A stretch of 64,000 bases of DNA, from NCBI GenBank assembly GCA_038245905.1, contig JBBRRY010000007.1, forward strand, positions 1 to 64,000, given 5' to 3'. Shown one piece after another: positions 47,721 through 60,930 of this stretch. The translations under genes and the position numbers were made by a program. The DNA is from Thermoanaerobaculia bacterium (GTDB lineage Bacteria > Acidobacteriota > Thermoanaerobaculia > UBA5066). Position 1 is the first letter of the stretch, and each line of letters starts with the position of its first letter. Below the pieces are notes generated by a model. That model was not told where the DNA came from. It ran no database searches and saw only the letters and a list, made by a program, of their open reading frames with translations.

Positions 47721-48133
47721 GGGCGCTGAAACGATGGCTTTCCGTTGCCGGCCTGCTCGTGCTCGGGAGCTGCACGCAAGACAAGTCCCCCACGTCGCCG
47801 TTCTCCTGCGTCCCGCTGACGGGTCAATACGCGGGCATCTTCACGGACTCGTGCGGGCTCTCGAAAACGGCGGACGTCACGCTCTTCCAGACGGGCTGCA
47901 CGGTGGTTGCGGAGTTCCCGGGCGTGGGCACGCTGCAGGGCAACGTCGAGGGCCAGACCCTGATTTTCGCGATCGGTTTTGCCGGTTCCTCGCCGTGCGG
48001 CGGGTCGGCCAGCGGGAGCGCCGCCGTCACGTCTTCGGGCGGCCTCCTCGGAGCCTACAAGGGTCAGGCAACAGGCGCCGGCACGAGCTGCTGCGGAAGC
48101 GTCTCGGGCAGTTTCACGCTCACCCGGCGCTGA
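47717..48133 (+). CDS. Cys-rich small lipoprotein
   Basis: GTG overlaps the upstream stop; lipobox LGSC; six further Cys; Gly/Ser/Thr-rich beta pattern. Confidence 0.65.
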   Translation: MRALKRWLSVAGLLVLGSCTQDKSPTSPFSCVPLTGQYAGIFTDSCGLSKTADVTLFQTGCTVVAEFPGVGTLQGNVEGQTLIFAIGFAGSSPCGGSASGSAAVTSSGGLLGAYKGQATGAGTSCCGSVSGSFTLTRR

Positions 48134-48713
48134 ATCCCGCGGGCCGGACCGGGTAGTCCTCCCCTCCGACGAACTGGTCGGCATCGGACGACACGATGAT
48201 CGCGACGCCGCCCTCCGCGCTGAACGTCTTGGTCTCCGTCGTCCCCGCTTCCGAGCGGCAATAGTCCCCCTCGCGGAGCGTGACTCCGTTGAGGACGACG
48301 GAGCCGGAGACGATGAAGACCTCTTCCGTGCCTCCGTGCCGATGGGAGGGATACGTGGACCCGGGCGCGAAGCGGAGAAGACGCGTCGTGTACCCGCGAG
48401 CGTCGTCCCGGTGCAGGACCTTGAAGTCGAGGCCGGGCATCGCCGCGGGCATCCACGGGACGTCGGCGACGAGGACGGCGGACACGCCCGGCAGGATGCC
48501 TCGGCCTCCCGGGGGAAGCGATGCGGAGCGCGCGAGACCCTCCGGGTCCTGGGCGATGCGGGCGAGGATGCGGTCCTTGAGATGCGGCGGGGGCGCGGCC
48601 GCCGCCGAAAGTGCGAGCGCGTCGACGACTGCGTCGCCGAACTCCCTTCGGAGCTCGGCCCACTCGCGATCGTTCGTGTCTTCGTCCAGGTGCAGGTCGT
48701 TCACGTCGTCCAT
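48120..48713 (-). CDS. ChrR-like cupin anti-sigma factor
   Basis: PPPHLKDRIL anti-sigma segment plus cupin (LLRFAPG..HRHGGTEE..G); overlaps the sigma gene end. Confidence 0.85.
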   Translation of the reverse strand: MDDVNDLHLDEDTNDREWAELRREFGDAVVDALALSAAAAPPPHLKDRILARIAQDPEGLARSASLPPGGRGILPGVSAVLVADVPWMPAAMPGLDFKVLHRDDARGYTTRLLRFAPGSTYPSHRHGGTEEVFIVSGSVVLNGVTLREGDYCRSEAGTTETKTFSAEGGVAIIVSSDADQFVGGEDYPVRPAGFSAG

Positions 48714-49303
48714 CCTTCGGCCTGAGACCCGAGGGCTTGACGCAGGTGCGCGAGACCGAGCCGGATCCTCGACTTGGCGGTGCCAAGCGGCTGCGCGAGT
48801 TTCTCGGCGATCTCGGTGTGCGTGAGGCCCTCGAAATAAGCGAGCTCGATGACCTCGCGCTGTTCGGCGGGGAGGCCGAGAAGCGCGGCGCGCACCGTGG
48901 AAGCGCGCTGGGCGAGCGACGAAGACGTCTCCGGATCGGCGCCCGGCGACGCGAGGCCGCGCGCCTGCTCCAGGTCTTCTTCGTGCCGCCGGGCCCCTCC
49001 GCGGGAGCGGAGCCGGTCGATCGCGCGCGAGCGCGCGAGCATGAGAAGCCAGGCGAGGGGCTCGCCGCGGTCTGAATCGAATCGGGCCGCCTGGCGCCAC
49101 GCCTGGGTGTAGACGTCGAGGGTGACCTCCTCGGCGTCCGCGTGATTGCGCAGAACCTTGAAGCAGATGCCGAATACGAATCGGCTCGACTGGTCGTAAA
49201 GCTCCGACAGCGCCGCCGGATCCCCCGAGGAGATCCGGCGCATGAGGCCCGAATGGTCGGGCCGCTCCGCGCGAATCTCGCGCGCCCGGGGCACCAGGGT
49301 CAT
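48701..49303 (-). CDS. ECF RNA polymerase sigma factor (SigK/RpoT-like)
   Basis: DAEEVTLDVYTQAW, WLLMLARSRAIDRLR and LAYFEGLTHTEIA..PLGTAKSRIRLG motifs. Confidence 0.93.
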   Translation of the reverse strand: MTLVPRAREIRAERPDHSGLMRRISSGDPAALSELYDQSSRFVFGICFKVLRNHADAEEVTLDVYTQAWRQAARFDSDRGEPLAWLLMLARSRAIDRLRSRGGARRHEEDLEQARGLASPGADPETSSSLAQRASTVRAALLGLPAEQREVIELAYFEGLTHTEIAEKLAQPLGTAKSRIRLGLAHLRQALGSQAEGWTT

Positions 49304-49383
49304 GACCGGCCTCGCATTGTGGGCGGGATTATGCCCGCCCAGGCGCTCGAGGGTGCCTGGAAGAACGCCGGCCATACGGGGTG

Positions 49384-49409
49384 TACGGGATTCGGCCGCC
49401 TTTGGATCA
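49384..49409 (-). promoter_or_regulatory. Putative ECF promoter (sigma autoregulation)
   Basis: TGATCC-N16-CGTA upstream of the sigma gene; the same architecture occurs at 56286-56311. Confidence 0.65.
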
Positions 49410-49425
49410 GCTTGTCGGCCCGGGG

Positions 49426-49737
49426 CTATTCGAGATCCTTGGCCTTGATGCGGGCGGACGAGTCGTGCCCGCCGCCGACCAGGACCGTGATCGTGAGCTC
49501 GGTCTTCGCGGGCGGGGCGAAGTCGAAGACCCCCTTCGCGTTCGTGTGGCCGGTCAGGAGAACCTTGCCTTCGGCGTTCGTCACCTGGACGGGCGAATCG
49601 CCCACGGGAGCGCCGTCGCTGAAATAGGCCTCCACGTGGACCTTGCCCTTGACGACCTCCGCCCACACCGCGACGTCGTGGGCAAAGGCGGTCCCGGAGA
49701 GAGCGAGAAGAACCGCGAGGGCGACGAAGCGTCTCAT
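49426..49737 (-). CDS. Small periplasmic protein, CbiL/FpvJ-like
   Basis: Signal peptide AFA-H, YFSDG..V.V..GHTNAKGVFDF..GGGH; last gene of the metal ABC module. Confidence 0.7.
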   Translation of the reverse strand: MRRFVALAVLLALSGTAFAHDVAVWAEVVKGKVHVEAYFSDGAPVGDSPVQVTNAEGKVLLTGHTNAKGVFDFAPPAKTELTITVLVGGGHDSSARIKAKDLE

Positions 49738-50612
49738 CGTGAAGCCTCCCGGCGCCTCGGTGAGAGCGCCAGCGTGAGATAGAAGAGGGCCGTCGAGACG
49801 AGCGCGATGGCGCCGCCGGTCGGGACGGGAAGATACCCCGAGACGAGGAGGCCGCCGACGGCGGCGATCGTCGAAAGTGCGATGCTGAGGAAGAAGAACT
49901 GCCGGAGGTTCCGCGCCGCGTTCTGCGCGGCGGCGGCGGGGACGACGATCATCACGAGGACGAGAAGCGCGCCCACGAGCTTGAGCCCCGCCACGACCAC
50001 GGCCGTCGCCAGCGTGACGAATACGTATTCGAGAATGACGGGCCGCTTGCCGCGCGCCGAGGCCAGCTCGGGGCTCAGGCTCGCGAGGAGAAAGTCGTTG
50101 TAGAGGAAGGCGGCGACGGCGGCCGCGGCGAGCGCTGTGACGAGGAGGATCGCGAGGTCCGCGTCGCGGAGCGTAAGGAGGCTGCCGAAGAGCGCGCCTT
50201 CAACCTGGTGGATGTCGAAGCGCTTCGACACGAGAGCGACCATGAGGACGCCGAGTCCGAGCGTCTGCGCGAGGAAGATTCCCGTGACCGTGTCGGAAGG
50301 GATCCCGCCCCGGTGCTTCACGAACGTGACGAGAAGCGCGGACACGAGGCAGAACCCGTAGATGCCGGCCCACGTGGAGCCGGGCGGTTCGCCGAGGAGG
50401 AGACCGAGCGCCGTCCCCGTCATCGCCGCGTTGCCGATGGCCTGCACGAAGAACGACAGGCGTCGTGCGACGACGACGGTCCCGATCCCGCCGAAGAGCG
50501 GTCCGAGGAGGAGTGCGCCGAGGAGGCCGCGCACCATGAACGGATGGACGAAGACCGCCGGCAGGATTCCAGCGCGCGCCCAGCCGGCGAAGGCTTCATA
50601 GAGCGCGTCCAT
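49734..50612 (-). CDS. Metal ABC transporter permease (ABC-3 family, FpvE-like)
   Basis: Polytopic membrane protein with LFGSLLT, VGALLVLVMIVVPAAAA and PTGGAI motifs. Confidence 0.9.
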   Translation of the reverse strand: MDALYEAFAGWARAGILPAVFVHPFMVRGLLGALLLGPLFGGIGTVVVARRLSFFVQAIGNAAMTGTALGLLLGEPPGSTWAGIYGFCLVSALLVTFVKHRGGIPSDTVTGIFLAQTLGLGVLMVALVSKRFDIHQVEGALFGSLLTLRDADLAILLVTALAAAAVAAFLYNDFLLASLSPELASARGKRPVILEYVFVTLATAVVVAGLKLVGALLVLVMIVVPAAAAQNAARNLRQFFFLSIALSTIAAVGGLLVSGYLPVPTGGAIALVSTALFYLTLALSPRRREASR

Positions 50613-51280
50613 CAGGGAACCGCCTTCTCCAGGGGAACGCCTTCTCCTGTCGCGACGCGTCTGTTCAGGACCGTGACGCGCATCGCGACGCGCGCGAGGA
50701 GAGCCAGGTCATGCTCGACGAGGAGAACGGTTACGCCCCGTTCGCGGGAAAGCCGAAGGAGAAGGGCCTCGATCGCGCGTGAGCCTTCCTCGTCCACGTG
50801 GCTCGCAGGCTCGTCGAGGACGAGGAGCCGGGGTTCGAGAACGAGCGCCTGCGCGAGAAGCACGCGGCGCAGCTCGCCGCCCGACAGCTCGGAGAGCCGC
50901 CGGCCGAGAAGAGACGACGCGTCAGTCTCCGCAAGCGCGGTTTCGATTCGCTCCGAGAGCGCCTGGGTCCGCCGCATAAAGACGGGCTTCCGCGTCAGAG
51001 AAAGCGCGAAGAAATCCGCGACCGAGATCGGAAGCGAGGCGTCGAATGCGAGGGCCTGCGGCACGTAGCCGATCGCGTCCTTCAGCCCGAGGCCGAGGCG
51101 GATCGTGCCCGTGAACGGCAGTGTGCCGAGGAGGCAGCGCAAGAGCGTCGTCTTCCCGGCGCCGTTCGGGCCCGAAAGGCCGTGGATCTCGCCTTCGAAG
51201 ACGTCGAGGTCCACGTTCTCGAGCGCGACCTCGCCGCCGCGCCACGCGGTCAGGCCGCGAATCGAAATGATTGCGGTCAC
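50612..51280 (-). CDS. Metal ABC transporter ATP-binding protein
   Basis: GPNGAGKT, GYVPQ, LSGGE, LDEP and EHDL motifs; GTG start overlaps the SBP stop. Confidence 0.92.
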   Translation of the reverse strand: MTAIISIRGLTAWRGGEVALENVDLDVFEGEIHGLSGPNGAGKTTLLRCLLGTLPFTGTIRLGLGLKDAIGYVPQALAFDASLPISVADFFALSLTRKPVFMRRTQALSERIETALAETDASSLLGRRLSELSGGELRRVLLAQALVLEPRLLVLDEPASHVDEEGSRAIEALLLRLSRERGVTVLLVEHDLALLARVAMRVTVLNRRVATGEGVPLEKAVP

Positions 51281-52122
51281 GGTCCCGCCTCCGCGGCGGA
51301 CACGCCATCCACGATCGCGTCGAGATTCGCCTTCATGTCCTTCTCGAAGCGCTCGGGCGTGTACGGCCCGCCGGCGATGTGGGTCAGCCTCCGGAGCCGG
51401 CACCCGGATTCCTTTTCGATCGTGTCGACGTACGAGCGTTCGAGCCCGAGCTCCGTGAAGAGAAGATTCACGCGGGCCGCCTTGATGCGCTCGATCGTGT
51501 CCGCGAGCTGCCGCGCGGACGGCTCGACGCCGTGACGCGCCTGCACGACCGCGTCGACGCGGAGTCCGAGCTCCGAGAAGAGGTACCCGTACCCGTCGTG
51601 AACGGTGGCGATGCGGACGCGCGAAAGGTCCTTACCCTCGAGGCGTCGGAGCGCGTCGGCGAGGAGACTGCGCAGCCGCTTCACGTAGGCACGCGCGTTG
51701 TCGGCGTAGAGATCCGCATGCACGGGGTCGAGGCGGCCCAGCTCTTTCGCGAGGCTCTGGATCTGCTGCGAGGCGGCGGTGATCGAGAGAAACGAGTGGC
51801 TGTTCGCCCCGCCCGATGCGCCCGGAAGCAGCGGGACGTTCTTGTTCGGGGTGAGGCGCGGGAGGCGTTCCCTGCCGGCCGCCTTGAGCATCGGCTCGAG
51901 AAACGTGTCGTGGCCGAGGCCGTTCTCGACGACGGCGTCGAGCGATTCGACCGTCGCGAGATCTTCCGGCCGCGGCTGAAAGGAGTGCGGATCGGCGCCC
52001 GGGGGCACGATCGGAATCGCGATGGCGGCGTTGCCGCCGACGTTCGAGACCCATGAATAATAGGGATGGAGTGTGACGCCGACGCGGAGGACTGCGGCGA
52101 GAAGGACCGGAAGGGCGCTCAC
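51277..52122 (-). CDS. Metal ABC substrate-binding protein (cluster A-I, FpvC-like)
   Basis: VTLHPYYSWV, DPHSFQP, NGLGHD, NSHSFLS, VHDGYGY and HGVEPS; His-rich ligand set. Confidence 0.9.
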   Translation of the reverse strand: MSALPVLLAAVLRVGVTLHPYYSWVSNVGGNAAIAIPIVPPGADPHSFQPRPEDLATVESLDAVVENGLGHDTFLEPMLKAAGRERLPRLTPNKNVPLLPGASGGANSHSFLSITAASQQIQSLAKELGRLDPVHADLYADNARAYVKRLRSLLADALRRLEGKDLSRVRIATVHDGYGYLFSELGLRVDAVVQARHGVEPSARQLADTIERIKAARVNLLFTELGLERSYVDTIEKESGCRLRRLTHIAGGPYTPERFEKDMKANLDAIVDGVSAAEAGP

Positions 52123-52670
52123 GGCCTGGGCCCCGTGTCGCCGTCGAGCGCGACGAGCTCGAACCAGCCCTCGCGCACGGGGTACGCGCCCGCGACGCTC
52201 GCGGTTCCACCCTTTCGGAACCAGACCTCCGCGCTCGCGCCCTTCTCGCGCTCCTTCACGCGGAGAAGAAACGCGGTCCTCCGTCCCGCCGGATCGACGC
52301 CCGCGTAGTCCGCGGCGGTTCCGTTCGCGGTGGCGGTCCAGACGAGTCCGCGCGCCGCCGCCGGCAGGAGGGCCGGCGCGAAGGGAGGGACCTCTTCGCC
52401 GGCCAGGGCCGGCACGTCCGGCCAGGCGCCGGTCCTCTTTCGCTGGGACATGACGGAATCGACCGCGACGAGGAGCGATTGATAGACGACCTGATCGCTC
52501 GCGGTCAGCACGAGAGGCGCTGCCCCCTGCGGGGCTCCGTCCGAGCCCGCGCGGGGCAGCGTCGCGACGCGCACGGCACCGAGAAGGAGTACGGCGGCGA
52601 TGGCGGCCCCGACGCCGAGGGCCTCTCTCGAGGCACTGGGCGGACGCACGCGGCGACCGGCGGATTTCAT
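52119..52670 (-). CDS. Single-TM protein, DUF6162/FpvH-FpvK-like
   Basis: N-terminal VRPP...RE followed by a TM, WPDVPALAGEEVPPF and REGW; adjacent to the SBP. Confidence 0.6.
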   Translation of the reverse strand: MKSAGRRVRPPSASREALGVGAAIAAVLLLGAVRVATLPRAGSDGAPQGAAPLVLTASDQVVYQSLLVAVDSVMSQRKRTGAWPDVPALAGEEVPPFAPALLPAAARGLVWTATANGTAADYAGVDPAGRRTAFLLRVKEREKGASAEVWFRKGGTASVAGAYPVREGWFELVALDGDTGPRP

Positions 52671-53302
52671 CAGCGCCCGAACCGGACGCGCAGAGCCGCG
52701 GTCGTGACTTCGGAGGGAGGCTCGGCGGGATCGGACGGATAGAACGTCAGCCGCTTCGTCCGGTCCGCCTCCGGCACGTCCGAAGAGAGGACCGAGGCGC
52801 CCTTCGTGGCCGCCGCGATGATCTCCTTCCAGCCAGCCCGGCCTTCGAAGTTCGTGTCGGAGAACGCAATCGTCACTTCGCCGGCCTTTGGGAGATCGGC
52901 CGCAAGCTCGATCGTGAGGCGGGCGGTGGGGAGATCCGCGACGCCCGGCGAGAATTCCAGCGAGCTCTTCACGACACGGAGCGGCACCCGCGTGCCGTCG
53001 ATCGCGAGGACGAGGCCGGGTGCAAAGAGGGCGGCGAACGCGTCCCGGAGTCTCGCGAGCGCGTCGCCCCGGGGCGCGCTTGTCAGTCCGGACTCCGAGA
53101 GCGCCTTCTGCGTCGGGATCTCGGCGAGGTCGATGACGTGCGTGACGTCGATTCCTCCGGTGCGCGGCGATAGCCGCGTCCATCGATTCACGGAAAAATT
53201 ACCCATGGGATGGGAGAAAGATTCCGCTGAAGAGAGGAGAAGAGAGAGAAAGAAGAGAGATTTTCTTAGAAGGGAGGAGGGGAGGGTTTCTCTCCTACTC
53301 AT
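52670..53302 (-). CDS. Exported HPMGNFSVN-domain protein (periplasmic domain usually fused to Ni/Co transporters)
   Basis: Signal peptide followed by HPMGNFSVN, DLAEIPT, GWKEI and LTFYP; no membrane transporter domain follows. Confidence 0.7.
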   Translation of the reverse strand: MSRRETLPSSLLRKSLFFLSLLLSSAESFSHPMGNFSVNRWTRLSPRTGGIDVTHVIDLAEIPTQKALSESGLTSAPRGDALARLRDAFAALFAPGLVLAIDGTRVPLRVVKSSLEFSPGVADLPTARLTIELAADLPKAGEVTIAFSDTNFEGRAGWKEIIAAATKGASVLSSDVPEADRTKRLTFYPSDPAEPPSEVTTAALRVRFGR

Positions 53303-54515
53303 TCGCAGAACTCTTCATCTCCGTCAGCATGCGCTTTGCCTCATCCGCATGGAGGACGTGAAATCTGGGATCGATCTCCAGAGCTCGCTTCAGGTGCCGG
53401 GTGGCGGCCTGGCGATCGCCCGCGGCGCGGGCGATCGCTCCCGCGTGGAATTCGAAGAGAGGGTCGATCGTTCCCATCGCGAGCGCTTTCGCCATCGGCT
53501 CGGCGGCCTCTGTTGCTCTTCCCGCCGCGTAGAGGCTCCACGCGTAGGCGTCGTAACCGCCGACGTCCTTGCGGGTCTCGAGTTCCCGGGAGGTCATCTC
53601 GACGGCGCGTTTCGGGTCGCCGTTCTCGGCGAGACTTAGGGCGAGTAGGCGATGGACCCTTCTCTCGGGCTCGGGAAGAAGAGCTTCGAGCGTTTGGACG
53701 GTCGCCCGGGCGCGCGCCTCTCCGTCGCGGTCGCCCGTGGCCTTCCGGTAGTCGACGAGAGCCGAGGCGACGGAGAACTCCGGCACGAGCGCGAACGACT
53801 TCTCGGCGAGGCGCGTGGCAGGCTCCCAGAGGCCCTTGCGCGCCGCGATCTCCGCTGCCACGGCGAGTGCGGGAGCGTGATTCGGGACTCGGAGGAGGGC
53901 CTCGACGAGACGCCCCTCCGCTTCTTCGTAACGGTTCATCTTCAGGAGGATCCGGGCCGAGCGCGCGCGGCACCACGCATAGCCTTCGAGGTCGTCGGGG
54001 AGCGCCGCGCTCGCGGCGAAGTCCATCGCGGAGAGAGCGCCCGTCAGATCGCCGCCAACGTCCTTCGCGAGTGCGAGGCGGCTGTACGAGGCGGTCGAGC
54101 GGCTGGCGGCCGCGAACCGGTCGTAGGCTGCGAAGGCCTCGGGATAGCGCCCGACTTCGAGGAAGGCGTCGCCGAGGGCCCCATCCAGCTCCGCGTCGCC
54201 GGGACGTTCCACCTTCAGTGCGGCTGCCTCGCGTGCGAGTTCCTCGAAACGGTGGTGGGGGAGGAGAAGCCTCAGCCTGAACTTGCGAAGCGCGAAGTCC
54301 CCGGGCGAGGCGGTCAGCCCCCTGGTGACCGCGGATTCGGAGGCCGCGAGATCGGCAGGATCGAGCGTGCGGCGATAGTGCGCGTATCGCTCTTCGGCTG
54401 TCTTCAGGCACGGCTGCGACTCGGCGGCCGCGAGGAAGGAGAGGACGAAAGGAAGGGCGGCGGCCGCCACTCTCACTAGAGGAGAGAGCAGAGACCGCCG
54501 CCGCCGCGAATTCAC
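53295..54515 (-). CDS. Exported tetratricopeptide repeat protein
   Basis: Signal peptide and TPRs (LGDAFLEVGRYPEA, DAYAWSLY, HAGAIA..LKRALEIDP); downstream of DUF4331. Confidence 0.88.
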   Translation of the reverse strand: MNSRRRRSLLSPLVRVAAAALPFVLSFLAAAESQPCLKTAEERYAHYRRTLDPADLAASESAVTRGLTASPGDFALRKFRLRLLLPHHRFEELAREAAALKVERPGDAELDGALGDAFLEVGRYPEAFAAYDRFAAASRSTASYSRLALAKDVGGDLTGALSAMDFAASAALPDDLEGYAWCRARSARILLKMNRYEEAEGRLVEALLRVPNHAPALAVAAEIAARKGLWEPATRLAEKSFALVPEFSVASALVDYRKATGDRDGEARARATVQTLEALLPEPERRVHRLLALSLAENGDPKRAVEMTSRELETRKDVGGYDAYAWSLYAAGRATEAAEPMAKALAMGTIDPLFEFHAGAIARAAGDRQAATRHLKRALEIDPRFHVLHADEAKRMLTEMKSSANE

Positions 54516-54524
54516 GAGCGAAGA

Positions 54525-56201
54525 CTACTTGACCGTGGGCTGGATCCGGGCGAGGTCGTCCCGGTCGCGGGCGACCCGCACGCGCTCCTGGAACTCCTCG
54601 TCCGAGACGCCCTCGGGGAAGCCCTTGACGGATGCGTCGCGAATCGCGCGGACCGAGGGTGTCGCGGGCTTCAAAGGAGCGGGAGCGCCCGCGTGGAAGG
54701 CCGCGAAGCCGCTCGTCGGCGACCACATGAACGGGAAGAAGTAGCGGCAGCCGCGCTGCGGGAAGTCGACGCCGTCGCCGAGATCCTTGTTGGGTGAGGC
54801 GGCGTAGATCGGGTTTCCGCCGGCGGACGGCGGAAGGAGTCCGACGATGACGCCCGCGACTGCCCGGAGCTCGATGTCCACGACGTCGTCGCAGGGCCGG
54901 CGGCCATTCGGGAAGCCGGCACCGTCACCGCCGAGGTAGCCGAGGCGGCTCGCCGCAGCGAAGGGCGTCGGGGCCACGGCCGTGTTCAGGCGGAGCTGGT
55001 CGGAATAAACCTCGCCGGGGCGCTGGGTGGGCGCGACGCCGAGGAGATCCGCGACGGACTTCGGGAGCCCCTGGAAGAGCGCGAGCTGGAGGTCGCCGCG
55101 CGGGCCGGGAGGCACCGGGATGCCGAAGAGCACGTTCATATAGGTGGCGAGGATCGGGTACAGCTCGCCTGGCGTCGTCGCGTCGCCCTGGAAGAACGAT
55201 TCCTTGTCCGGGCCGACGGAGTTCCATCTGTCCTTGCGGCCGACTCCGACGAGGACCTCGTTCACGAGAGGGTTCCCGAGGCGCGAGACCTGCTGATACG
55301 TCGCACCGTTCGTCACGGTCCCGTCCGCATTGAGCGTGCGCGTGGACGGAATGCTCACGGACGCCCAGCCGCCGATGATCGAGACCGAGTTATTCGGGTC
55401 ACCGACCTGGAAGCCCACGGACGTGAGCATCGCAATCGGCACCTGGAGGGCCGTTGCAAGGACGGTGTAACCGTAGAGGGTGTCGCGGCCGCCGCCCGTG
55501 TTTCCGACGCCCACGCCGGGACGGCCGTTGCCCGCGCCGACCTCGAGGTTGATGGCGTCGAAGGTCATGCCGAGGTCGACGAAGAAGGGGTCCTGCCGGG
55601 GGCCGACGAAGACCGAGATCTTCCCGTTCGCCGCCGTCTGGATTCCGTTCGGAAGGCCCGCGTAGTTCGGGAACGTTTTGGGTCCGATGTTCGGGGGGAA
55701 GACCGGCTGGTCCACGAGGAGGTGCGTGATCTGCCCGGCCGAGGGGTTTCCCGCGGGGCCCGTGATCTTGTCGAGGCTGTACGTCTGCTTCACGTAGAGG
55801 TTGGCATCCGTGATCGACGTGAGGCCCGGGAGCGCGTAAAGGAACGAGTTCGGCTGGCTGTACGTCGTCTTGAACGAGAAGCGGAACGTCACGTCCTCGA
55901 TGCCGTCGCCGTTGTTGTCGATCTTGATGTCGTACCAGGCGCCGTCCTGGAAGCCGGCGTAGTTCGGGCCGCCCTGCGGCTCGATCAGGCCGTAACGGCA
56001 CGCGATGATGTTCACCATCGAGGTGTCGTTCGGGTCACGGAACATGTAGAAGTCCGTGTCGTCGATGGCGGGATTCTTCGACGTGAAGGGCGCCTCGTTG
56101 TGGCTGGAGGCCTGAGCGGGTGTCGGGGTGAGAAGCGCGGCGGCCGCGAGGATCCCGGCGGTGACGAGGCCGCAGAGGCGCAATTCTCTCGTTCTTGACA
56201 T
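54525..56201 (-). CDS. Secreted DUF4331 family protein
   Basis: AAGGAG SD, signal peptide AQA-SSHNEAP, DDTDFYMF, GPRQDPFFVDL, QVSRLGNPLVNE and GFPNGRR..DDVVD. Confidence 0.9.
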   Translation of the reverse strand: MSRTRELRLCGLVTAGILAAAALLTPTPAQASSHNEAPFTSKNPAIDDTDFYMFRDPNDTSMVNIIACRYGLIEPQGGPNYAGFQDGAWYDIKIDNNGDGIEDVTFRFSFKTTYSQPNSFLYALPGLTSITDANLYVKQTYSLDKITGPAGNPSAGQITHLLVDQPVFPPNIGPKTFPNYAGLPNGIQTAANGKISVFVGPRQDPFFVDLGMTFDAINLEVGAGNGRPGVGVGNTGGGRDTLYGYTVLATALQVPIAMLTSVGFQVGDPNNSVSIIGGWASVSIPSTRTLNADGTVTNGATYQQVSRLGNPLVNEVLVGVGRKDRWNSVGPDKESFFQGDATTPGELYPILATYMNVLFGIPVPPGPRGDLQLALFQGLPKSVADLLGVAPTQRPGEVYSDQLRLNTAVAPTPFAAASRLGYLGGDGAGFPNGRRPCDDVVDIELRAVAGVIVGLLPPSAGGNPIYAASPNKDLGDGVDFPQRGCRYFFPFMWSPTSGFAAFHAGAPAPLKPATPSVRAIRDASVKGFPEGVSDEEFQERVRVARDRDDLARIQPTVK

Positions 56202-56285
56202 GAAAACTCCTTGAGGAATGTGAAGCGGTGGATCGGTCCGGGTTACGTGCGTTTGTTCGTGCGCGTGCGGGGCATCTGGGGTTAC

Positions 56286-56311
56286 TACGAAAGGACTGGA
56301 TTTACGGATTA
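56286..56311 (-). promoter_or_regulatory. Putative ECF promoter of the DUF4331 operon
   Basis: TAATCC-N16-CGTA, 85 nt upstream of the DUF4331 ATG. Confidence 0.6.
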
Positions 56312-56361: not shown

Positions 56362-56460
56362 GGAAGCGCAAGGGGCCCGGCGGCCCTCCTGGTCTTCAAA
56401 ACCAGCGTGCTCGCTCCGAGAGGGGCGGCGGGTGGGTTCGACTCCCACACGCTTCCGCCA
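56362..56460 (+). tRNA. selC: tRNA-Sec (anticodon UCA)
   Basis: 99 nt, GGAAG...CTTCCGCCA; 6-bp D stem with 4-nt loop; CTGGT-CTTCAAA-ACCAG anticodon arm; long variable arm; GTGGG-TTCGACT-CCCAC T arm; TACAAT 7 nt upstream. Confidence 0.95.
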
Positions 56461-56513: not shown

Positions 56514-58487
56514 TCAGATTTGCAGCGGAGACAAATTTGGGCTGGGTATCTTTACGTCGCGTTGCCGTCCTTCGAAAAGCGCCGCCAGAAGGTGCTCGAC
56601 CTCACGCGGGCGCCCCGGCTTTACGACGTGGTGATCGAAGCCCGCCTCCTGGGTCCGCTGACGGTCGCTCGCCTGCCCATAGCCGGTCAAGGCGATGAGC
56701 GCGACGTGTCGTTGGTCGGGATCGCGCCGCAAGCGCCGCGCGACCTCGTATCCGTCCATGTTGGGCAAACCGAGATCGAGGATCACGGCCGCGGGCTTGA
56801 AATGAGCGGCTTCCTCAAGGGCGTCCGGCCCCGTATAGACGGCCCGGGTGTCATAGCCGGCGTACTCGAGGAGCAGCGTGACGCCGTCGGCCGCGTCCAC
56901 GTTGTCGTCGACGACGAGGACGCGATGCCTCGATTTCGCGCTCTCTCTCTGGTTTTCTGGAGCATCCGGCCGAACCTCGCCCGGAGGGGCCACGGCCGGG
57001 AGCCGCACGGTGAACTCGCTTCCCTCGTGTGGACCGGCGCTTTCTGCCGCGATCGTGCCTCCATGGAGCTCGACGATTTTCGACGCGAGATTCAGTCCGA
57101 TCCCGAGGCCCCCCTCGGACCGGTCCAGGGATCGGGGCCCCTGCGAAAAGAGCTCGAAAACGTGCGGGAGAACGTCTGCCGCGATTCCGATCCCGCTGTC
57201 TCTCACGCTGAGCACGACGTCGTCTCCCTCTCGCGTCGCCCCGAGCCAGACGTGGCCCCCCGCTTCCATGTACTTCGCCGAGTTGTTCAGGAGGTTCACC
57301 GCGACCTGTTCCATGCGGCTCGCGTCGGCCAGGACCCAGAGCGACTCCGGGGCGAGTTCGACGAAAAGCTCGTGGCCCGAGCGCTCGATGAGAGCGCGCG
57401 CCGAAGCCGCCGCCCCTCGAACGACGCCCCGGAGGTCGATGACCTCCCGCGAGAGCTGAATCCGCCCGAGCGTGACGCGGGAGACTTCGAGCAGGTCGTC
57501 GACGAGGCGGGTCAGCTGTACCACCTGACGCTCGATCACCTCGCGGGCATGGCGCTGGACCGAGTCTTCCTTTCCGTGCGCCTGAAGAACGGCGGCGGAG
57601 GTGACGATCGGGGAGAGAGGATTCCGCAGCTCGTGCGCGAGCATCGCGAGGAACTCGTCCTTGCGACGGTGGAGGTCGGCGAGATCCGCACTTTGGGACG
57701 CGACCCGCGTCTCCAGGTGGACGCGCTCGCTGATGTCGCGGATGTTGCACTGGATGACCTTCGTCTGATCCACCGCATAGACGTTGCTGACGAACTCCAC
57801 CTGTGCCGAGCGGCCCTCCTTGGTCCGGAGGGGCAGGTGGTCGTAACGGACGTAGGAGTTCCTCTGAAGCTCCTCGAACATCGCCTTGTTCGCGTCGATG
57901 TCGGCGAACAGCCCGATCTCCCAGAGCTGTTTGCCGAGAAGCTCTTCTTTCGAATAGCCCAGAAGCTTTTGGATGAAAGGATTTGCGTCGTCGATCGTCC
58001 CCAAGGGCTCGTTGAGGATCAGGATTCCGTCCTCCGCCGCTTCGAAGAGGCGGCGATAACGGATCTCCGAAGCCTCGAGGAGCTTGAGGGAGCCGGTTCG
58101 TGCCGTCACGTCCTCGATGCCGACGAGGATCAGGTCGGAAGCGTGGCCCCCGATACGAACGCGCCGGGCGTTCAAGAGCTTCGACCGCCGGCCGACTCCC
58201 GGAAAATCGCTCTCGAGCGCGTAGTCTTCGAAGGGACGGTCCTCCGTGAGGACCTCCTTCAGGAGCTCCATGAGGATCGGAGTGTTCCACTGTCCGTCCC
58301 CGAGCTCGTTGATGCGCCGACCCTCGATGTCCTTCGGATTCGCGCCGAAGCTCGTGTAGAATGCCCGGTTCGCCGACCGCACGACGAGGTCGCCGTCGAG
58401 GACGAGAAACGGCTCGCGAAGAGTCGAGACCACATCCTTGCAATAGTCGTGGGCCTGCAATGGCTTGTGATCCGGGACGATCGTCAC
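56514..58487 (-). CDS. Hybrid sensor histidine kinase (PAS-PAS-HisKA-HATPase-REC)
   Basis: H-box LAHELRNPL, NLLNNSAKY, DSGIG, GGLGIGL and receiver motifs (VVDD, DLGLP, KP). Start GTG 58487 inferred. Confidence 0.9.
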   Translation of the reverse strand: MTIVPDHKPLQAHDYCKDVVSTLREPFLVLDGDLVVRSANRAFYTSFGANPKDIEGRRINELGDGQWNTPILMELLKEVLTEDRPFEDYALESDFPGVGRRSKLLNARRVRIGGHASDLILVGIEDVTARTGSLKLLEASEIRYRRLFEAAEDGILILNEPLGTIDDANPFIQKLLGYSKEELLGKQLWEIGLFADIDANKAMFEELQRNSYVRYDHLPLRTKEGRSAQVEFVSNVYAVDQTKVIQCNIRDISERVHLETRVASQSADLADLHRRKDEFLAMLAHELRNPLSPIVTSAAVLQAHGKEDSVQRHAREVIERQVVQLTRLVDDLLEVSRVTLGRIQLSREVIDLRGVVRGAAASARALIERSGHELFVELAPESLWVLADASRMEQVAVNLLNNSAKYMEAGGHVWLGATREGDDVVLSVRDSGIGIAADVLPHVFELFSQGPRSLDRSEGGLGIGLNLASKIVELHGGTIAAESAGPHEGSEFTVRLPAVAPPGEVRPDAPENQRESAKSRHRVLVVDDNVDAADGVTLLLEYAGYDTRAVYTGPDALEEAAHFKPAAVILDLGLPNMDGYEVARRLRRDPDQRHVALIALTGYGQASDRQRTQEAGFDHHVVKPGRPREVEHLLAALFEGRQRDVKIPSPNLSPLQI

Positions 58488-58498
58488 CGGGTCGTCGC

Positions 58499-59311
58499 TC
58501 AGAACGGCGTCGCGAGCTGGAACGTGCCGTCGTTGGACGTGTTGTCGACCTCGACGGCGTAGCACACGGCATTGCCCGTCGTCGTGATCTGGATTCCGCC
58601 GTTCGACACGAAGAAATTCGCTCCGAACTGGTCCCAGCCGAAGCCCTTCAGGGTGAAAGTCAGGGGGCTCCCGACGGCGAAGTTGTTCGCGTCGAAACCC
58701 TGGAACTGGATCGTCTGGGAGACCGAGGTGTTGCTCGCGCAACCGACGTTCGTCCTTCTGAGGGAGTTGACCGAGATGCCCACCGCGAACCCGGGGCGCG
58801 AGGGAGTGATCGCCCCGAGGTCGTCGGCAAACTGAACCGCCGTGGTGTACCGCCCGCTGGCGGAGTCCACATAGACCTGCGCGTTCACGATGAACAGGAA
58901 ACCGGTATTCCGGCTGTCTAGGTCGATCGCGCCTCCGCCGGTGTAGCCGAAGAGGTCGGCGAGAATGTTGTTGAACGTGACCGTCTGGCCGGGGGAGAGA
59001 GGGACGAAGGTGTGCGCGATCTCACCACTCCGGTCGCTCAGGCCCACCCGAACGTCGTAGGAGGCGTTCACGGCGTTGAAAATACTGACCTTCGTCTTGT
59101 AAACCGAGCCGAACAGGCCGTTCGCGTTGGCCGAGGTCGGGAGCAGCAGATGGGAAACGGCGCCCACGGCCAGAGGAGCGCGCCCTTCGGCGGTTCGTAA
59201 CGGGCTCGTCGATTCGCTTCCGAGGGCCCGGCGCCCGGGGTCGACGGGTTCGGTGCCGAACAAAGGGGCGCAGCAACAGAACAGGAGAGGGTAAATCGCA
59301 CGTTTGAGCAT
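58499..59311 (-). CDS. Secreted hypothetical beta-rich protein
   Basis: AGGAGG SD, signal peptide, LLLPTSANANGLFGSVYKTKVSIFN, RTNVG and VDNTSNDGTF. Confidence 0.75.
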   Translation of the reverse strand: MLKRAIYPLLFCCCAPLFGTEPVDPGRRALGSESTSPLRTAEGRAPLAVGAVSHLLLPTSANANGLFGSVYKTKVSIFNAVNASYDVRVGLSDRSGEIAHTFVPLSPGQTVTFNNILADLFGYTGGGAIDLDSRNTGFLFIVNAQVYVDSASGRYTTAVQFADDLGAITPSRPGFAVGISVNSLRRTNVGCASNTSVSQTIQFQGFDANNFAVGSPLTFTLKGFGWDQFGANFFVSNGGIQITTTGNAVCYAVEVDNTSNDGTFQLATPF

Positions 59312-59370: not shown

Positions 59371-60930
59371 TCAGCGGGCCGCCTCGTCCATCGCCGCGCG
59401 CACGCGGCGCGCGAGAGTATCCGGAGAGAAGGGCTTCAGGAGGAGTGGCGCTCCTTCCGGCAGGAGGGCGCCCGAGTCGGACGCCGCGTAGCCCGACATA
59501 TAGAGCACGGGGAATTCGAGGCCGCGGGCGGCGATCTGGAGGGCCATCTCGGGTCCGCTCATTCCGGGCATCACGACGTCCGTCACGACGAGGCAGATCG
59601 ACTCCGCGTTCGCCTCAGCGAGCGCGAGCGCGTCCGGGCCCGACGCCGCCGCGAGCACCGTGTATCCGCGTCCCCGGAGGACGTCCGATGCGAGCTTGCG
59701 GACGAGGTCTTCGTCCTCGACGAGAAGGATCGTCTCGGTTCCGCGCGAGAGCCCGCGGCGGTGCGCGCCGGACGCCTTGCGGGTTTCCCGGAAACCGTCC
59801 TCGTTCCTCGGGAGGAAGACGCGGAAGGTCGTGCCCTCCCCCGGGTCGCTCGCGACCTCCGTGAATCCGCCGGCCTGGTGAACGATCGCGTAGACCGTCG
59901 AGAGCCCGAGGCCGGTCCCTTTGCCTTTCGGCTTCGTCGTGAAGAACGGCTCGAACATCTTCCCGAGCGTCTCCTCGCTCATCCCGACGCCGTCGTCCGC
60001 CACCGTGAGGACGACCCGCGAGCCGCCGCGGTCCGCACCGGTCCGGGTCACGTTGGCGGCCTCGATCCGGAGCGTCCCGCCCTTCGGCATCGCGTCGCGG
60101 GCGTTCACGGCGAGGTTGAGGAGCACCTGCTCGATCTGGGAGCGGTCTCCGCGGACGCGCCCGAGGTCGGCCGGGACGGCGCAGGTGAAGACGATGTCCT
60201 CGCCGATGACGCGCCGGAGCATCTGCTCCATCGCGTGGATCACGGCCGCGACGTCCACGACTTCGATCTGCTCGACCTGGGGAAGGGGCTTGCCGACTGC
60301 CGAGAGGGTCCGCCAGGTGCCGTCCGCGTGCCGCATCCGGAATTCGACCTGCTCGAAGCGGGTTCCGTGCGCCATGACGCCGGCGATGCGCTCCCGGACG
60401 CGGGGGGCATCCTCGCGGTGGACGAGCTCGGAGACGTTTTAGCCCTTCGCGTCGTCGGGACGGACTCCGAGCAGCCGTTCGACGGACGGGCTCACGAAGA
60501 GGACCGTGCCGTCGGGCGCGAGAACCGCCGTCAGGTCGAGCGCGTGCTCGATCAACGAGCGGTAGTACAGCTCGCTCTTCGCGACCTCGGCCTCGGCGCG
60601 CCTGGACTCGGAGGTGTCGTGGACGAACCCCTCCAGCTCGAACGATCCCGGGGCGGCTCCCGGGACGAGGCGCATGTCGAATCGCACCCAGAGAGGCGCG
60701 CCATCCTTGCGGCGCAGCCGGACCTCGAAGCCATGGAGCTCGCCGCGGCGCCGATACTCCTCGAGGGCGCGCTCGCGGTCCGCGGGCTCGTAGTAGACCT
60801 CGGTCGGGATGTCGAGGGGCAGGATCTCCGCGACGCTCGCATACCCCAGCATCCGCGCGAAGGCGAGGTTCGCATACCGGAACTTTCCCTCGCGCGTCGT
60901 CCGGTAGATTCCGATCGGGGCGCGTACGAT
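59371..60930 (-). pseudogene. Disrupted PAS-PAS hybrid histidine kinase
   Basis: In-frame TAA at 60439-60441 inside the second PAS domain, and the reading frame continues to the receiver domain. HisKA/H-box is missing near 60280, and there is no plausible 5' end before the divergent gene. Confidence 0.8.

Follow-up and report, generated by a model that had tools for sequence, protein, structure and literature searches.

What does a DUF4331 protein do, and how do the metal-type transporter and the sigma factor encoded beside it bear on its role? This question is raised by ten consecutive minus-strand genes (48120-56201) in the first 64,000 nucleotides (nt) of contig JBBRRY010000007.1 from a Thermoanaerobaculia bacterium (Acidobacteriota; GenBank assembly GCA_038245905.1), a stretch that we call the window. 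The literature searched, which was thin on subscription journals, contained no paper naming DUF4331, DUF6162, PF14224 or IPR025566, in keeping with the statement of an initial annotation, made from the letters alone, that DUF4331 is without described function. Our tentative answer is that the genes encode an envelope system, controlled by an extracytoplasmic function (ECF) sigma factor, which captures and imports a transition metal, most likely Ni(II) and then Cu(II). The ten genes, as given by the list of open reading frames (ORFs) and by Pfam and NCBIfam scans, and two candidate promoters are listed here in the order of transcription; the operon region has about 68% G+C.

56286..56311, minus strand: candidate promoter P1, TAATCC-N16-CGTA, about 85 nt upstream of the DUF4331 start codon.
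54525..56201, minus strand: DUF4331 protein of 558 amino acids (aa); Pfam PF14224, E 5.7e-111.
53295..54515, minus strand: putative periplasmic tetratricopeptide repeat (TPR) protein of 406 aa with an N-terminal hydrophobic leader; several Pfam TPR families, E 1e-8 to 1e-10.
52670..53302, minus strand: free-standing domain protein with a predicted N-terminal histidine (His1), here called HPMGNF, of 210 aa; without Pfam or NCBIfam match.
52119..52670, minus strand: DUF6162 protein of 183 aa with a single N-terminal transmembrane segment, in the FpvK position; PF19659, E 5.5e-12.
51277..52122, minus strand: FpvC-type cluster A-I substrate-binding protein (SBP) of 281 aa; Pfam ZnuA (PF01297), E 1e-45.
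50612..51280, minus strand: ATP-binding cassette (ABC) ATPase of 222 aa, counted from a GTG overlapping the SBP stop codon; ABC_tran, E 6e-24.
49734..50612, minus strand: ABC-3 family permease of 292 aa; Pfam ABC-3, E 3.9e-46.
49426..49737, minus strand: putative periplasmic NikL-like/FpvJ-like protein of 103 aa; NCBIfam NF058648, E 1.8e-23.
49384..49409, minus strand: candidate promoter P2, TGATCC-N16-CGTA, 17 nt past the NikL-like stop codon and upstream of the sigma gene.
48701..49243, minus strand: SigK-like ECF sigma factor of 180 aa, counted from the ATG at 49243; Sigma70_r2 and r4.
48120..48713, minus strand: soluble anti-sigma factor of 197 aa with a C-terminal ChrR-type cupin; Cupin_7, E 2.9e-20.

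Gene order and strand were as first annotated. The label "CbiL/FpvJ-like" given to the 103-aa protein needs correcting: NikL-like/FpvJ-like is the better name (NF058648 and phmmer). From DUF4331 to the anti-sigma factor the successive junctions measure +9, −8, −1, −4, −4, −1, −4, +182 and −13 nt, the 182 nt ahead of the sigma gene being the sole sizeable intergenic gap. The genes from TPR to NikL-like overlap one another by 1 to 8 nt: the HPMGNF stop codon and the DUF6162 ATG have a base in common (TGATG), the GTG start of the SBP overlaps the DUF6162 stop codon, and ATPase and SBP genes overlap by GTGA. Because of these overlaps, the genes from TPR to NikL-like are probably translationally coupled. 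The overlaps also point to a single transcript, as had been proposed at first. Terminator-like sites were no commoner than in shuffled sequence (7 vs 4.6 +/− 2.5). On one side the operon is bounded by a convergent plus-strand gene ending at 48133, and on the DUF4331 side by a tRNA-Sec gene (plus strand, 56362-56460).

The first protein matches the DUF4331 profile with 372 bits against a cut-off of 27, over positions 1-421 of 421. Its leader ends in AQA and is followed by SSHNEAP, which gives a predicted mature N-terminus of Ser-Ser-His; we take this X-X-His end to be of the amino-terminal Cu(II)/Ni(II)-binding (ATCUN) pattern. In an alignment of 46 homologs (A1), S32, S33 and H34 are invariant, and H34 is the sole invariant His or Cys of the protein. 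Across bacteria and archaea, identity is about 35-45% along 470 aa, and many Asp, Arg and Asn residues are invariant. The family is large (7,770 of 8,000 candidates at E <= 1e-3), with members in many bacterial phyla and in some archaea. The last 50-60 residues of the window protein (54525-54700, minus strand) form a low-confidence extension ending in a predicted helix, which is common to close relatives of 545-557 aa and missing from relatives of 470-500 aa.

Structure searches gave the family no relative. The AlphaFold2 model of DUF4331 (pLDDT, the predicted local distance difference test, 80.2; pTM, the predicted template-modelling score, 0.81) had no Foldseek match in the PDB at E <= 1e-3, with template-modelling (TM) scores of about 0.1. 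A PDB sequence search gave nothing meaningful, and an ESM Atlas search with PF14224 excluded gave no usable match. Across these PDB sequence and fold searches and the Atlas search, neither a catalytic motif nor a fold relative was found.

A search with A1 retrieved 598 confirmed DUF4331 loci in the genome collection, of which the best 80 are used throughout. Identity to the query is 34-78%, and the source organisms belong to Actinomycetota, Acidobacteriota, Chloroflexota, Pseudomonadota and other bacterial phyla, three of them being archaea instead. Six-frame ORFs of the 80 loci were searched with the ten window proteins, followed by all-against-all clustering and Pfam scans on representatives. 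The DUF4331 query was found in 80/80 loci, the TPR query in 27 (30 after clustering), the ECF sigma query in 24, the generic ABC ATPase in 23, HPMGNF in 16 and the ChrR cupin in one, L070.

DUF4331 begins with S/T-S-H-x-E-A in all 80 loci, right after either a signal-peptide-like leader or the start Met. In 33 of them, the secreted class, the leader ends in Ala or Gly, and the window protein (...AQA|SSHNEAP) is of this class. In the other 47, the motif directly follows the start Met (M-SSHREAP in bacterial loci, M-TSHREAP in the three archaeal ones). The simplest reading would be that a free N-terminal X-X-His is functionally essential in DUF4331. Tandem duplicates of the gene occur in both classes, at L017 (9839-12799, both copies of the secreted type) and at L065 (9941-13134, both signal-less).

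The two classes differ in their partners. A TPR gene adjoins DUF4331 in 30 of the 33 secreted-type loci, downstream in 29 and upstream in L030; the three without it are L001, where the contig ends, L010 and L026. The TPR family is a specific one, with 46% mean column identity in its alignment (A3). The DUF4331 of L010 (9923-11740), from a Candidatus Eisenbacteria metagenome-assembled genome, carries at its C-terminus a FlgD_ig/Por_Secre_tail type IX secretion sorting signal. A predicted complex of mature DUF4331 with mature TPR protein (A1 and A3 alignments) scored an ipSAE (interface score from predicted aligned errors) of 0.00 in both runs; made without controls, it speaks neither for nor against binding.

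Signal-less DUF4331 genes are instead immediately preceded, in 45 of 47 cases (45 of the 80 loci, all among L020-L080), by a small gene of about 80 codons. A hidden Markov model built from 11 examples gave 46 matches at E <= 1e-2, 45 of them at E < 1e-5, and none in the window. The small protein, of which L060 9654-9926 and L028 1137-1475 are examples, combines a twin-arginine motif (TRRxFVK) with a C-terminal segment that is conserved (PLVAYV..GEISVM.G.REV.VRD..LAA). That segment matched no Pfam family, and one of the four examples scanned matched merely a twin-arginine translocation (Tat) signal model. None of these 45 loci has a TPR or HPxGNF gene. Culturable organisms with this type of locus include Micromonospora and Streptomyces. 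A gene for TatC lies about 2-2.5 kb from signal-less DUF4331 in L021, L022, L032 and L048 (Pfam E 1.2e-57 for the L048 member), two of which are from Bathyarchaeota. The small partner may thus be a Tat carrier subunit, and on the simplest reading signal-less DUF4331 would be exported by hitch-hiking on it. Such hitchhiking is known for the large subunits of [NiFe]-hydrogenases, which likewise are signal-less and leave via a partner with a twin-arginine signal; the likeness is an analogy, not evidence.

Around secreted-type DUF4331, the conserved core consists of the TPR gene and of a fusion of a His1 domain to a permease (16 of 33 loci). In the fused protein, a signal peptide leads into an HPxGNF domain, which is joined to an RcnA/NicO-like membrane domain; an HALSPGHGK motif and His-rich loops are present. 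A second NicO-like gene (cluster c28; Pfam run on three members) adjoins the fusion in four of these loci, L012, L017, L044 and L045. Canonical NiCoT-type NicO proteins were found in nine loci (Pfam E 1e-82 to 1e-89 for the two members scanned); they adjoin six of the 45 loci with a Tat-type partner, and also L018, an archaeal locus of the signal-less class. Two gammaproteobacterial plasmids, Marinobacter adhaerens pHP-187 and one of Pseudoalteromonas CF6-2, carry in a row DUF4331, TPR and a His1 domain fused to HupE_UreJ_2 (PF13795), and the Pseudoalteromonas cassette is preceded by an ECF sigma factor and an RskA-type anti-sigma factor. In all, four kinds of Ni/Co/Cu-type permease were encountered among the neighbours of DUF4331: HPxGNF-RcnA/NicO-like, second NicO-like, NiCoT and His1-HupE_UreJ_2. 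By the company it keeps, DUF4331 is strongly tied to transition-metal handling. The metal link drawn in the initial annotation is upheld by these four permease kinds, by a His1 domain with a model like the Cu/Ni-binding Ang-1 and by an FpvC-type SBP.

The His1 domain is best seen in HPMGNF. Its leader ends in SFS (...AESFS) and is followed by HPMGNFSVN, which makes His the first mature residue, the cleavage site having been read by eye. In every homolog that retains the N-terminal extension, His-Pro directly follows a leader ending in Ala or Ser. The annotated 178-aa start, at a Met within HPMGNF, was rejected, as leader and His-Pro are conserved upstream of that Met. Many public gene models (178-182 aa; P0121-P0166) start at the same inner Met and thereby lose the signal peptide and His-Pro.

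The AlphaFold2 model of HPMGNF (pLDDT 90.7) is a beta-sandwich with helices inserted after the second strand. Its best Foldseek match in the PDB was 9GCE, the Cu-bound Ang-1 (E 2.7e-5, probability 1.00, TM 0.42/0.50), while the runners-up, at E >= 2.9e-4, were unrelated beta-sandwiches. A PDB sequence search with HPMGNF gave nothing meaningful, and the ESM Atlas returned unnamed clusters only, DUF1007 being the nearest named family (score 0.76). Ang-1 and Ang-2, the "anglerases", are His1 domains fused to HupE/UreJ-2 permeases. Ang-1 is reported to bind Cu2+ (dissociation constant, Kd, 74 nM) and Ni2+ (220 nM) through a mono-histidine brace, and its authors proposed that the captured metal is fed into the permease (Franco Cairo et al., Nat Commun 2025, PMC12537917). 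The main text of that paper mentions neither DUF4331 nor NicO, RcnA, TPR or ATCUN, and in its source data DUF4331 is a rare neighbour, with counts of 1, 2 and 1 among the matches listed.

HPMGNF shares with anglerases a signal peptide followed by His1, a predicted Ig-like beta-sandwich that appears related to Ang-1, and coupling to a metal permease; the two gammaproteobacterial plasmid cassettes bring DUF4331 and TPR together with an anglerase-type His1-HupE_UreJ_2 protein. Unlike anglerases, the window protein, of 210 aa, stops where the domain does and has no fusion to HupE/UreJ-2 (PF13795). Its fused relatives carry an RcnA/NicO-like (NicO/DsbD_2-like) domain instead, and identity to Ang-1 (9GCE) is just 15%. 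Because the plasmids carry HupE_UreJ_2 and other loci carry RcnA/NicO-like fusions, the DUF4331 cassette appears to use anglerase-type permeases of at least two families.

HPMGNF homologs stand alone in close relatives, which are Thermoanaerobaculia-like metagenome proteins, and are NicO-fused in more distant ones; the fused NicO domain is still there in P0176. A profile built from the HPxGNF alignment (A2) gave 11,265 matches in the representative library at E <= 1e-3 and 3,298 at E <= 1e-30. This profile has 469 positions including the permease domain, and such counts cannot separate free-standing, fused or unrelated RcnA-like proteins; the best 150 matches are all of fused length (428-823 aa), most covering nearly the whole profile. 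We considered that HPMGNF might be followed by a frameshifted or decayed NicO domain and rejected this, since the downstream ORF is a good DUF6162 match and the window holds no NicO-like ORF.

In the place of a fused permease, the window has an ABC module. The nearest PDB sequences to its SBP are 6R3Z and 6RU4 (E 1e-77), the next family following at 7e-21. Six His are identical between the SBP and FpvC in the printed alignment and are candidate ligands. According to a preprint, 6R3Z is the Pseudomonas aeruginosa FpvC with Ni bound at a six-His site. The nearest NCBIfam models of ATPase and permease are AztA (E 6e-42) and AztB (E 8e-41), both below cut-off. The leader of the SBP (VSALPVLLAAV..., 52080-52122, minus strand) has no charged region, and the ORF cannot begin further upstream.

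The operon fpvGHJKCDEF of P. aeruginosa (FpvGHJK-FpvCDEF), which serves to release and import iron in the pyoverdine pathway, has the same order of an FpvC-homologous SBP followed by ATPase and ABC-3 permease genes, and FpvJ is reported to bind FpvC in two-hybrid and pulldown experiments (PMC6954188). Its layout is mirrored in plasmid operons of Azospirillum, Cereibacter and Vibrio, which contain PepSY-TM, small proteins, DUF6162, an FpvC-like SBP, ATPase, permease and a second SBP, with a TonB-dependent receptor nearby. In two of them, L084 and L086, annotated DUF6162 genes lie directly upstream of the FpvC-like SBP gene. These plasmid proteins match the window DUF6162 protein by phmmer (E 2.6e-11 and 2.8e-10); tblastn of DUF6162 against plasmids gave no match, which reflects its low sensitivity, and a PDB sequence search with DUF6162 gave nothing meaningful. 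The window DUF6162 thus occupies the FpvK position, an equation that rests on plasmid-operon synteny and not on comparison with the PAO1 protein.

The NikL-like protein has a signal peptide ending in AFA, followed by HDVAV, so that its predicted mature N-terminus is again a His1. It matches NF058648 with 83.5 bits, below the cut-off of 100, and over positions 1-97 of 180, that is the N-terminal domain only. By phmmer, in a database of 14 sequences, it also matches the proteins in the FpvJ position of L084 and L085 (E about 2e-5), and its PDB sequence search gave spurious repeat matches only. In the FpvJ-position proteins of L084 (4984-5301, AEA|HYP) and L086 (5034-5360, ALA|HNP), too, a His stands right after the signal peptide. 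FpvJ-type proteins may hence also be His1 metal binders.

A ZnuA-family SBP nearest to FpvC, an adjoining ATPase and ABC-3 permease, DUF6162 upstream and a small His1 protein of the FpvJ family make the module Fpv-type. It differs from the Fpv system in the place of the FpvJ-like gene, which follows the permease gene instead of preceding the DUF6162 gene, and in the upstream partners of the module, which are DUF4331, TPR and the His1 domain. It also lacks several Fpv parts: when the L084-L086 proteins and one TonB-dependent receptor were searched by phmmer against all window ORFs of at least 35 aa, no PepSY-TM reductase (FpvG), second SBP (FpvF) or relative of the receptor tested was found at E <= 1e-2, and the FpvH-position protein of L084 gave no match either. 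Elsewhere in the 64-kb window no relative of NiCoT, of the NicO membrane domain or of HupE was found. The ABC module, which occurs in none of the 80 loci, seems to have replaced in this lineage the permease to which the HPxGNF domain is usually fused. Metagenome contigs of identical size (17284, 82863, 3878252, 8508 and 7014) recur in the match lists of DUF4331, HPMGNF and DUF6162, and the last two occur together on several contigs of about 2 kb; the arrangement of a free-standing HPMGNF with DUF6162 seems to be conserved in the clade.

Regulation was analysed from the sigma factor and its putative promoters. The sigma factor comprises regions 2 and 4 only, adjoins an anti-sigma gene, which it overlaps by 13 nt, and has the motif upstream of its own gene, as expected of an ECF sigma factor. 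It is nearest to SigK (NF007228, E 1.5e-50, 171.5 bits, under the cut-off of 226), and an in-frame ATG at 49303 would yield 200 aa instead of 180. Close homologs adjoin DUF4331 in 21 loci. The motif TRATCC-N16-CGTA emerged when the window and the 17 loci that have a close sigma homolog were compared in the regions ahead of their DUF4331 and sigma genes. It is present in 16 of these 36 regions, against a mean of 1.8 and a maximum of 6 in shuffles. In the 64 kb, both strands searched, there are exactly two matches where 0.04 were expected, a number reached in none of 100 shuffles, and these are P1 and P2. A scan for sigma-70-like promoters gave 0 sites. A looser form, NATCC-N15-17-CGTA, was found within 350 nt upstream of DUF4331 or of the small partner gene in 16 of the 80 loci (background 0.0064 per 350 nt, i.e. 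about 0.5 loci expected), including the closest relative, L001, and loci without a sigma gene in the fetched flank. The proposal of ECF control is supported by the two copies, found nowhere else in the window, and by the recurrence of the motif upstream of DUF4331 and sigma genes across other phyla.

The signal itself is another matter. The initial annotation had the operon induced by stress, and named ChrR-type cupin anti-sigma factors as responding to oxidative or singlet-oxygen stress in Rhodobacter; nothing found supports such a signal here. The window protein has the ChrR-type cupin domain, as in RpoE-ChrR pairs; it scores 22.9 bits against TIGR02451 (cut-off 124.5), and its nearest NCBIfam model, NF051881 ("cadmium/peroxide/UV radiation responsive" ChrR), is a weak match (E 8e-6, 25.6 bits, cut-off 300). 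By eye, its N-terminal 80 residues contain no Cys and no His-x3-Cys-x2-Cys zinc motif, and it falls short of a ChrR-type zinc anti-sigma factor. A SigK-like sigma factor with a ChrR-like cupin anti-sigma factor stands beside DUF4331 in one other locus of the 80 (L070), whereas the same type of sigma factor is adjoined by an RskA-type anti-sigma factor in 13. The pair thus resembles the mycobacterial SigK-RskA type by its sigma factor and by these 13 related loci, while every window score for either known pair is below the curated cut-off.

Gene content and order, overlaps, motif, co-occurrence, N-terminal conservation, the fold likeness to Ang-1 and the sequence likeness to FpvC are observations; what follows on metal binding by DUF4331, on which metal is bound, how it passes from protein to protein, which way it is transported and what induces the operon is inferred. 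In the metal import relay that we favour, the SigK-like sigma factor, held by the soluble cupin anti-sigma factor, would fire the two TRATCC-N16-CGTA promoters, one driving DUF4331 through NikL-like and the other the sigma and anti-sigma genes. DUF4331 would be exported, and cleavage of its signal peptide would expose NH2-Ser-Ser-His, an X-X-His site of the amino-terminal Cu/Ni-binding type. It would act with a dedicated periplasmic TPR partner, and the His1 beta-sandwich protein resembling anglerase domains would take over the metal. In most lineages this domain would be tethered to an RcnA/NicO-like or HupE/UreJ-2 permease, and in the Thermoanaerobaculia-like clade it would be free-standing. 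In the window it would feed the Fpv-type ABC importer, composed of the hexa-His FpvC-like SBP, the ATPase and the ABC-3 permease and assisted by the FpvK-like (DUF6162) and FpvJ/NikL-like (His1) accessory proteins.

As to the metal, NicO, NiCoT, HupE/UreJ and NikL are Ni/Co transporter families, and X-X-His sites bind Ni(II). Ni(II) is favoured because it is common to every associated family. On the structural side, its case comes from the reported Ni in the FpvC crystal and the reported Kd of 220 nM of Ang-1 for Ni. Cu(II) is nearly as good a candidate. By analogy with FpvC, the metal could also be Fe2+.

N-terminal metal sites and periplasmic hand-offs are known elsewhere, as in the Ni-hook of nickel superoxide dismutase (NiSOD), in CopC-CopD/YcnJ and in AztD-AztC. 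The proposed relay resembles ATCUN and the NiSOD hook in using a processed N-terminus as metal ligand, and CopC-CopD/YcnJ and AztD-AztC in coupling a periplasmic binding domain to a permease or SBP; these are analogies and not evidence. PDB searches with DUF4331 found no sequence or fold relationship to any of these systems or to [NiFe]-hydrogenase. What is of a known kind here is the anglerase-type capture domain coupled to an importer; the DUF4331 and TPR core is uncharacterised, and the N-terminal site of DUF4331, its dual export routes and its regulon appear undescribed so far.

Several points weigh against the metal import relay. RcnA-type NicO proteins are known exporters, and the fused permeases could export metal towards DUF4331 rather than import it. 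An ECF sigma factor is unusual as a regulator of metal uptake without a TonB transducer. The SBP, the ABC-3 permease, DUF6162 and the NikL-like protein each occur in 0/80 of the DUF4331 loci, by which the coupling of DUF4331 to the ABC module is, as judged from these neighbourhoods, clade-specific, and its conservation within the clade rests solely on the matching contig sizes. The expectation of the initial annotation that the ABC-3 module would be co-conserved with DUF4331 thus failed, and with it came half of what had been named there as grounds for giving up the idea. On the whole, of its interpretation the metal link, the ECF control and the single operon stand, and the conserved ABC partnership and the oxidative stress do not.

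Other points against import concern single components. Between the alignment A2 and the N-terminal domain of the Marinobacter HupE-fused protein, hhalign detected no similarity (probability 0.2). In the model of DUF4331 the N-terminus is of low confidence (pLDDT < 50 for residues 25-33). In the SBP, just about 11-15 residues precede the mature domain, far fewer than is usual in a signal peptide. In Pseudomonas, FpvC was assigned to Fe2+ (PMC6954188), and the metal could then be iron. The looser promoter motif is present in just 16 of the 80 loci and absent from most upstream regions. A reverse-complement control of the 36-region comparison gave 10 regions, by which a strand-blind signal cannot be excluded; with many of the genes being divergent, however, this control lacks independence. 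Finally, a signal-less DUF4331 with a twin-arginine partner, as in 45 of the 80 loci, fits a cytoplasm-folded cofactor protein, for instance an enzyme, better than a simple scavenger.

It is possible, if doubtful, that DUF4331 is a very widespread, previously unrecognised class of extracytoplasmic metalloproteins with an NH2-Ser-Ser-His metal site, two dedicated biogenesis routes and a SigK-like regulon. One route would be Sec export followed by periplasmic metallation, through TPR and a His1 anglerase-type domain on a Ni/Co/Cu-type permease, in whose place the window would have the Fpv-type ABC importer. The other would be cytoplasmic loading and Tat export on the signal-carrying partner of about 80 aa. 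A SigK-like ECF regulon, conserved from Actinomycetota to Acidobacteriota, would govern both. If this were true, the DUF4331 family would have a new metal-dependent activity and its own biogenesis pathway, of which anglerases are one part.

The main rival proper, which we regard as unlikely, makes DUF4331 the client of the system: an extracytoplasmic metalloenzyme or redox protein, with the processed N-terminus as metal site, matured and supplied by the other genes. In the periplasm, the TPR protein and the His1 domain would load Sec forms with metal that the fused permease supplies; signal-less forms would be loaded in the cytoplasm with NiCoT-imported metal and then exported by Tat on the small partner. 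This would account for the twin-arginine gene immediately upstream of signal-less DUF4331 in 45/80 loci, for TatC within about 2.5 kb in four loci, for NiCoT beside six loci with a Tat-type partner and beside L018, and for the confinement of TPR to the Sec-type class (30/33 vs 0/45). An enzyme-level conservation over the 470 aa, with its many invariant Asp, Arg and Asn, and the exporter nature of RcnA-type permeases also suit it. There is reportedly a precedent in MncA and CucA of Synechocystis, where the folding compartment is said to select the metal. However, neither a catalytic motif nor a fold relative was found, and a single His or Cys is conserved. The window transporter is an SBP-dependent ABC importer, unable to export metal to the periplasm, and the domains of the Ang type were proposed by their discoverers to act in uptake. 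Moreover, co-export of DUF4331 with the small partner is deduced from gene order alone.

Two other rivals are weaker. It is improbable that two unrelated modules merely share a transcript, namely a DUF4331-TPR-His1 cassette lacking its permease and an independent Fpv-type importer, possibly for Fe2+, inserted between this cassette and its sigma and anti-sigma genes. The 0/80 count for ABC-3, SBP, DUF6162 and NikL speaks for such a chance juxtaposition, as do the proteobacterial DUF6162-FpvC-ATPase-permease sets, which belong to siderophore-type operons with PepSY-TM and TonB-dependent receptors and without DUF4331, and the assignment of FpvC to Fe2+ capture (PMC6954188). But the His1 domain loses its permease exactly where the ABC module starts, the TGATG overlap joining both genes, and there is neither an internal ECF motif nor an intergenic gap between the DUF4331-side and ABC-side halves of the operon. 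The Fpv-like module of the window is also devoid of the reductase (FpvG/H), second SBP and TonB receptor of the proteobacterial operons, His1 and DUF6162 are adjacent again on related contigs, some of just about 2 kb, and the window offers the His1 protein no other permease. Very improbable, lastly, is a response to metal excess or envelope stress, in which the ECF sigma factor would switch on sequestration by DUF4331 (and RcnA-type efflux elsewhere) to detoxify Ni, Co or Cu: control by a sigma/anti-sigma pair, the weak "cadmium/peroxide/UV radiation responsive" match of the anti-sigma factor (25.6 bits vs 300), the Ni/Co efflux for which the RcnA family is known and the His-rich loops of the fused permeases would agree with it, but the window has an SBP-dependent importer and no efflux component was found in the operon, the NiCoT and HupE neighbours belong to uptake families, and a single X-X-His per 55-kDa protein would make a poor metal sink.

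The window and the survey of 80 loci together give DUF4331, until now little more than a name, a metal hypothesis that can be tested, with as pointers an invariant X-X-His at the mature N-terminus, two distinct export routes, an obligate TPR partner of the Sec form, recurrent coupling to four permease families and a conserved ECF promoter. For the metal import relay, it would extend the 2025 anglerase idea by an RcnA/NicO-like permease family, by a free-standing form apparently feeding an ABC importer and by an upstream partner, DUF4331, to which the original study drew no attention. If confirmed, this would add a route of trace-metal acquisition or metalloprotein maturation in soil and sediment bacteria, and would place DUF6162 and the FpvJ/K-type proteins in a setting other than that of siderophore systems.

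Some features lie just upstream of the operon. The tRNA-Sec gene (selC, anticodon TCA) sits, on the opposite strand, between a hybrid histidine kinase gene and the promoter region of DUF4331. There are two such kinases (PAS-HisKA-HATPase-REC), at 56514-58742 and 59371-60375, both on the minus strand. Between them, 58499-59311 (minus strand) encodes a 270-aa protein with no Pfam match and, by eye, a hydrophobic N-terminal leader.

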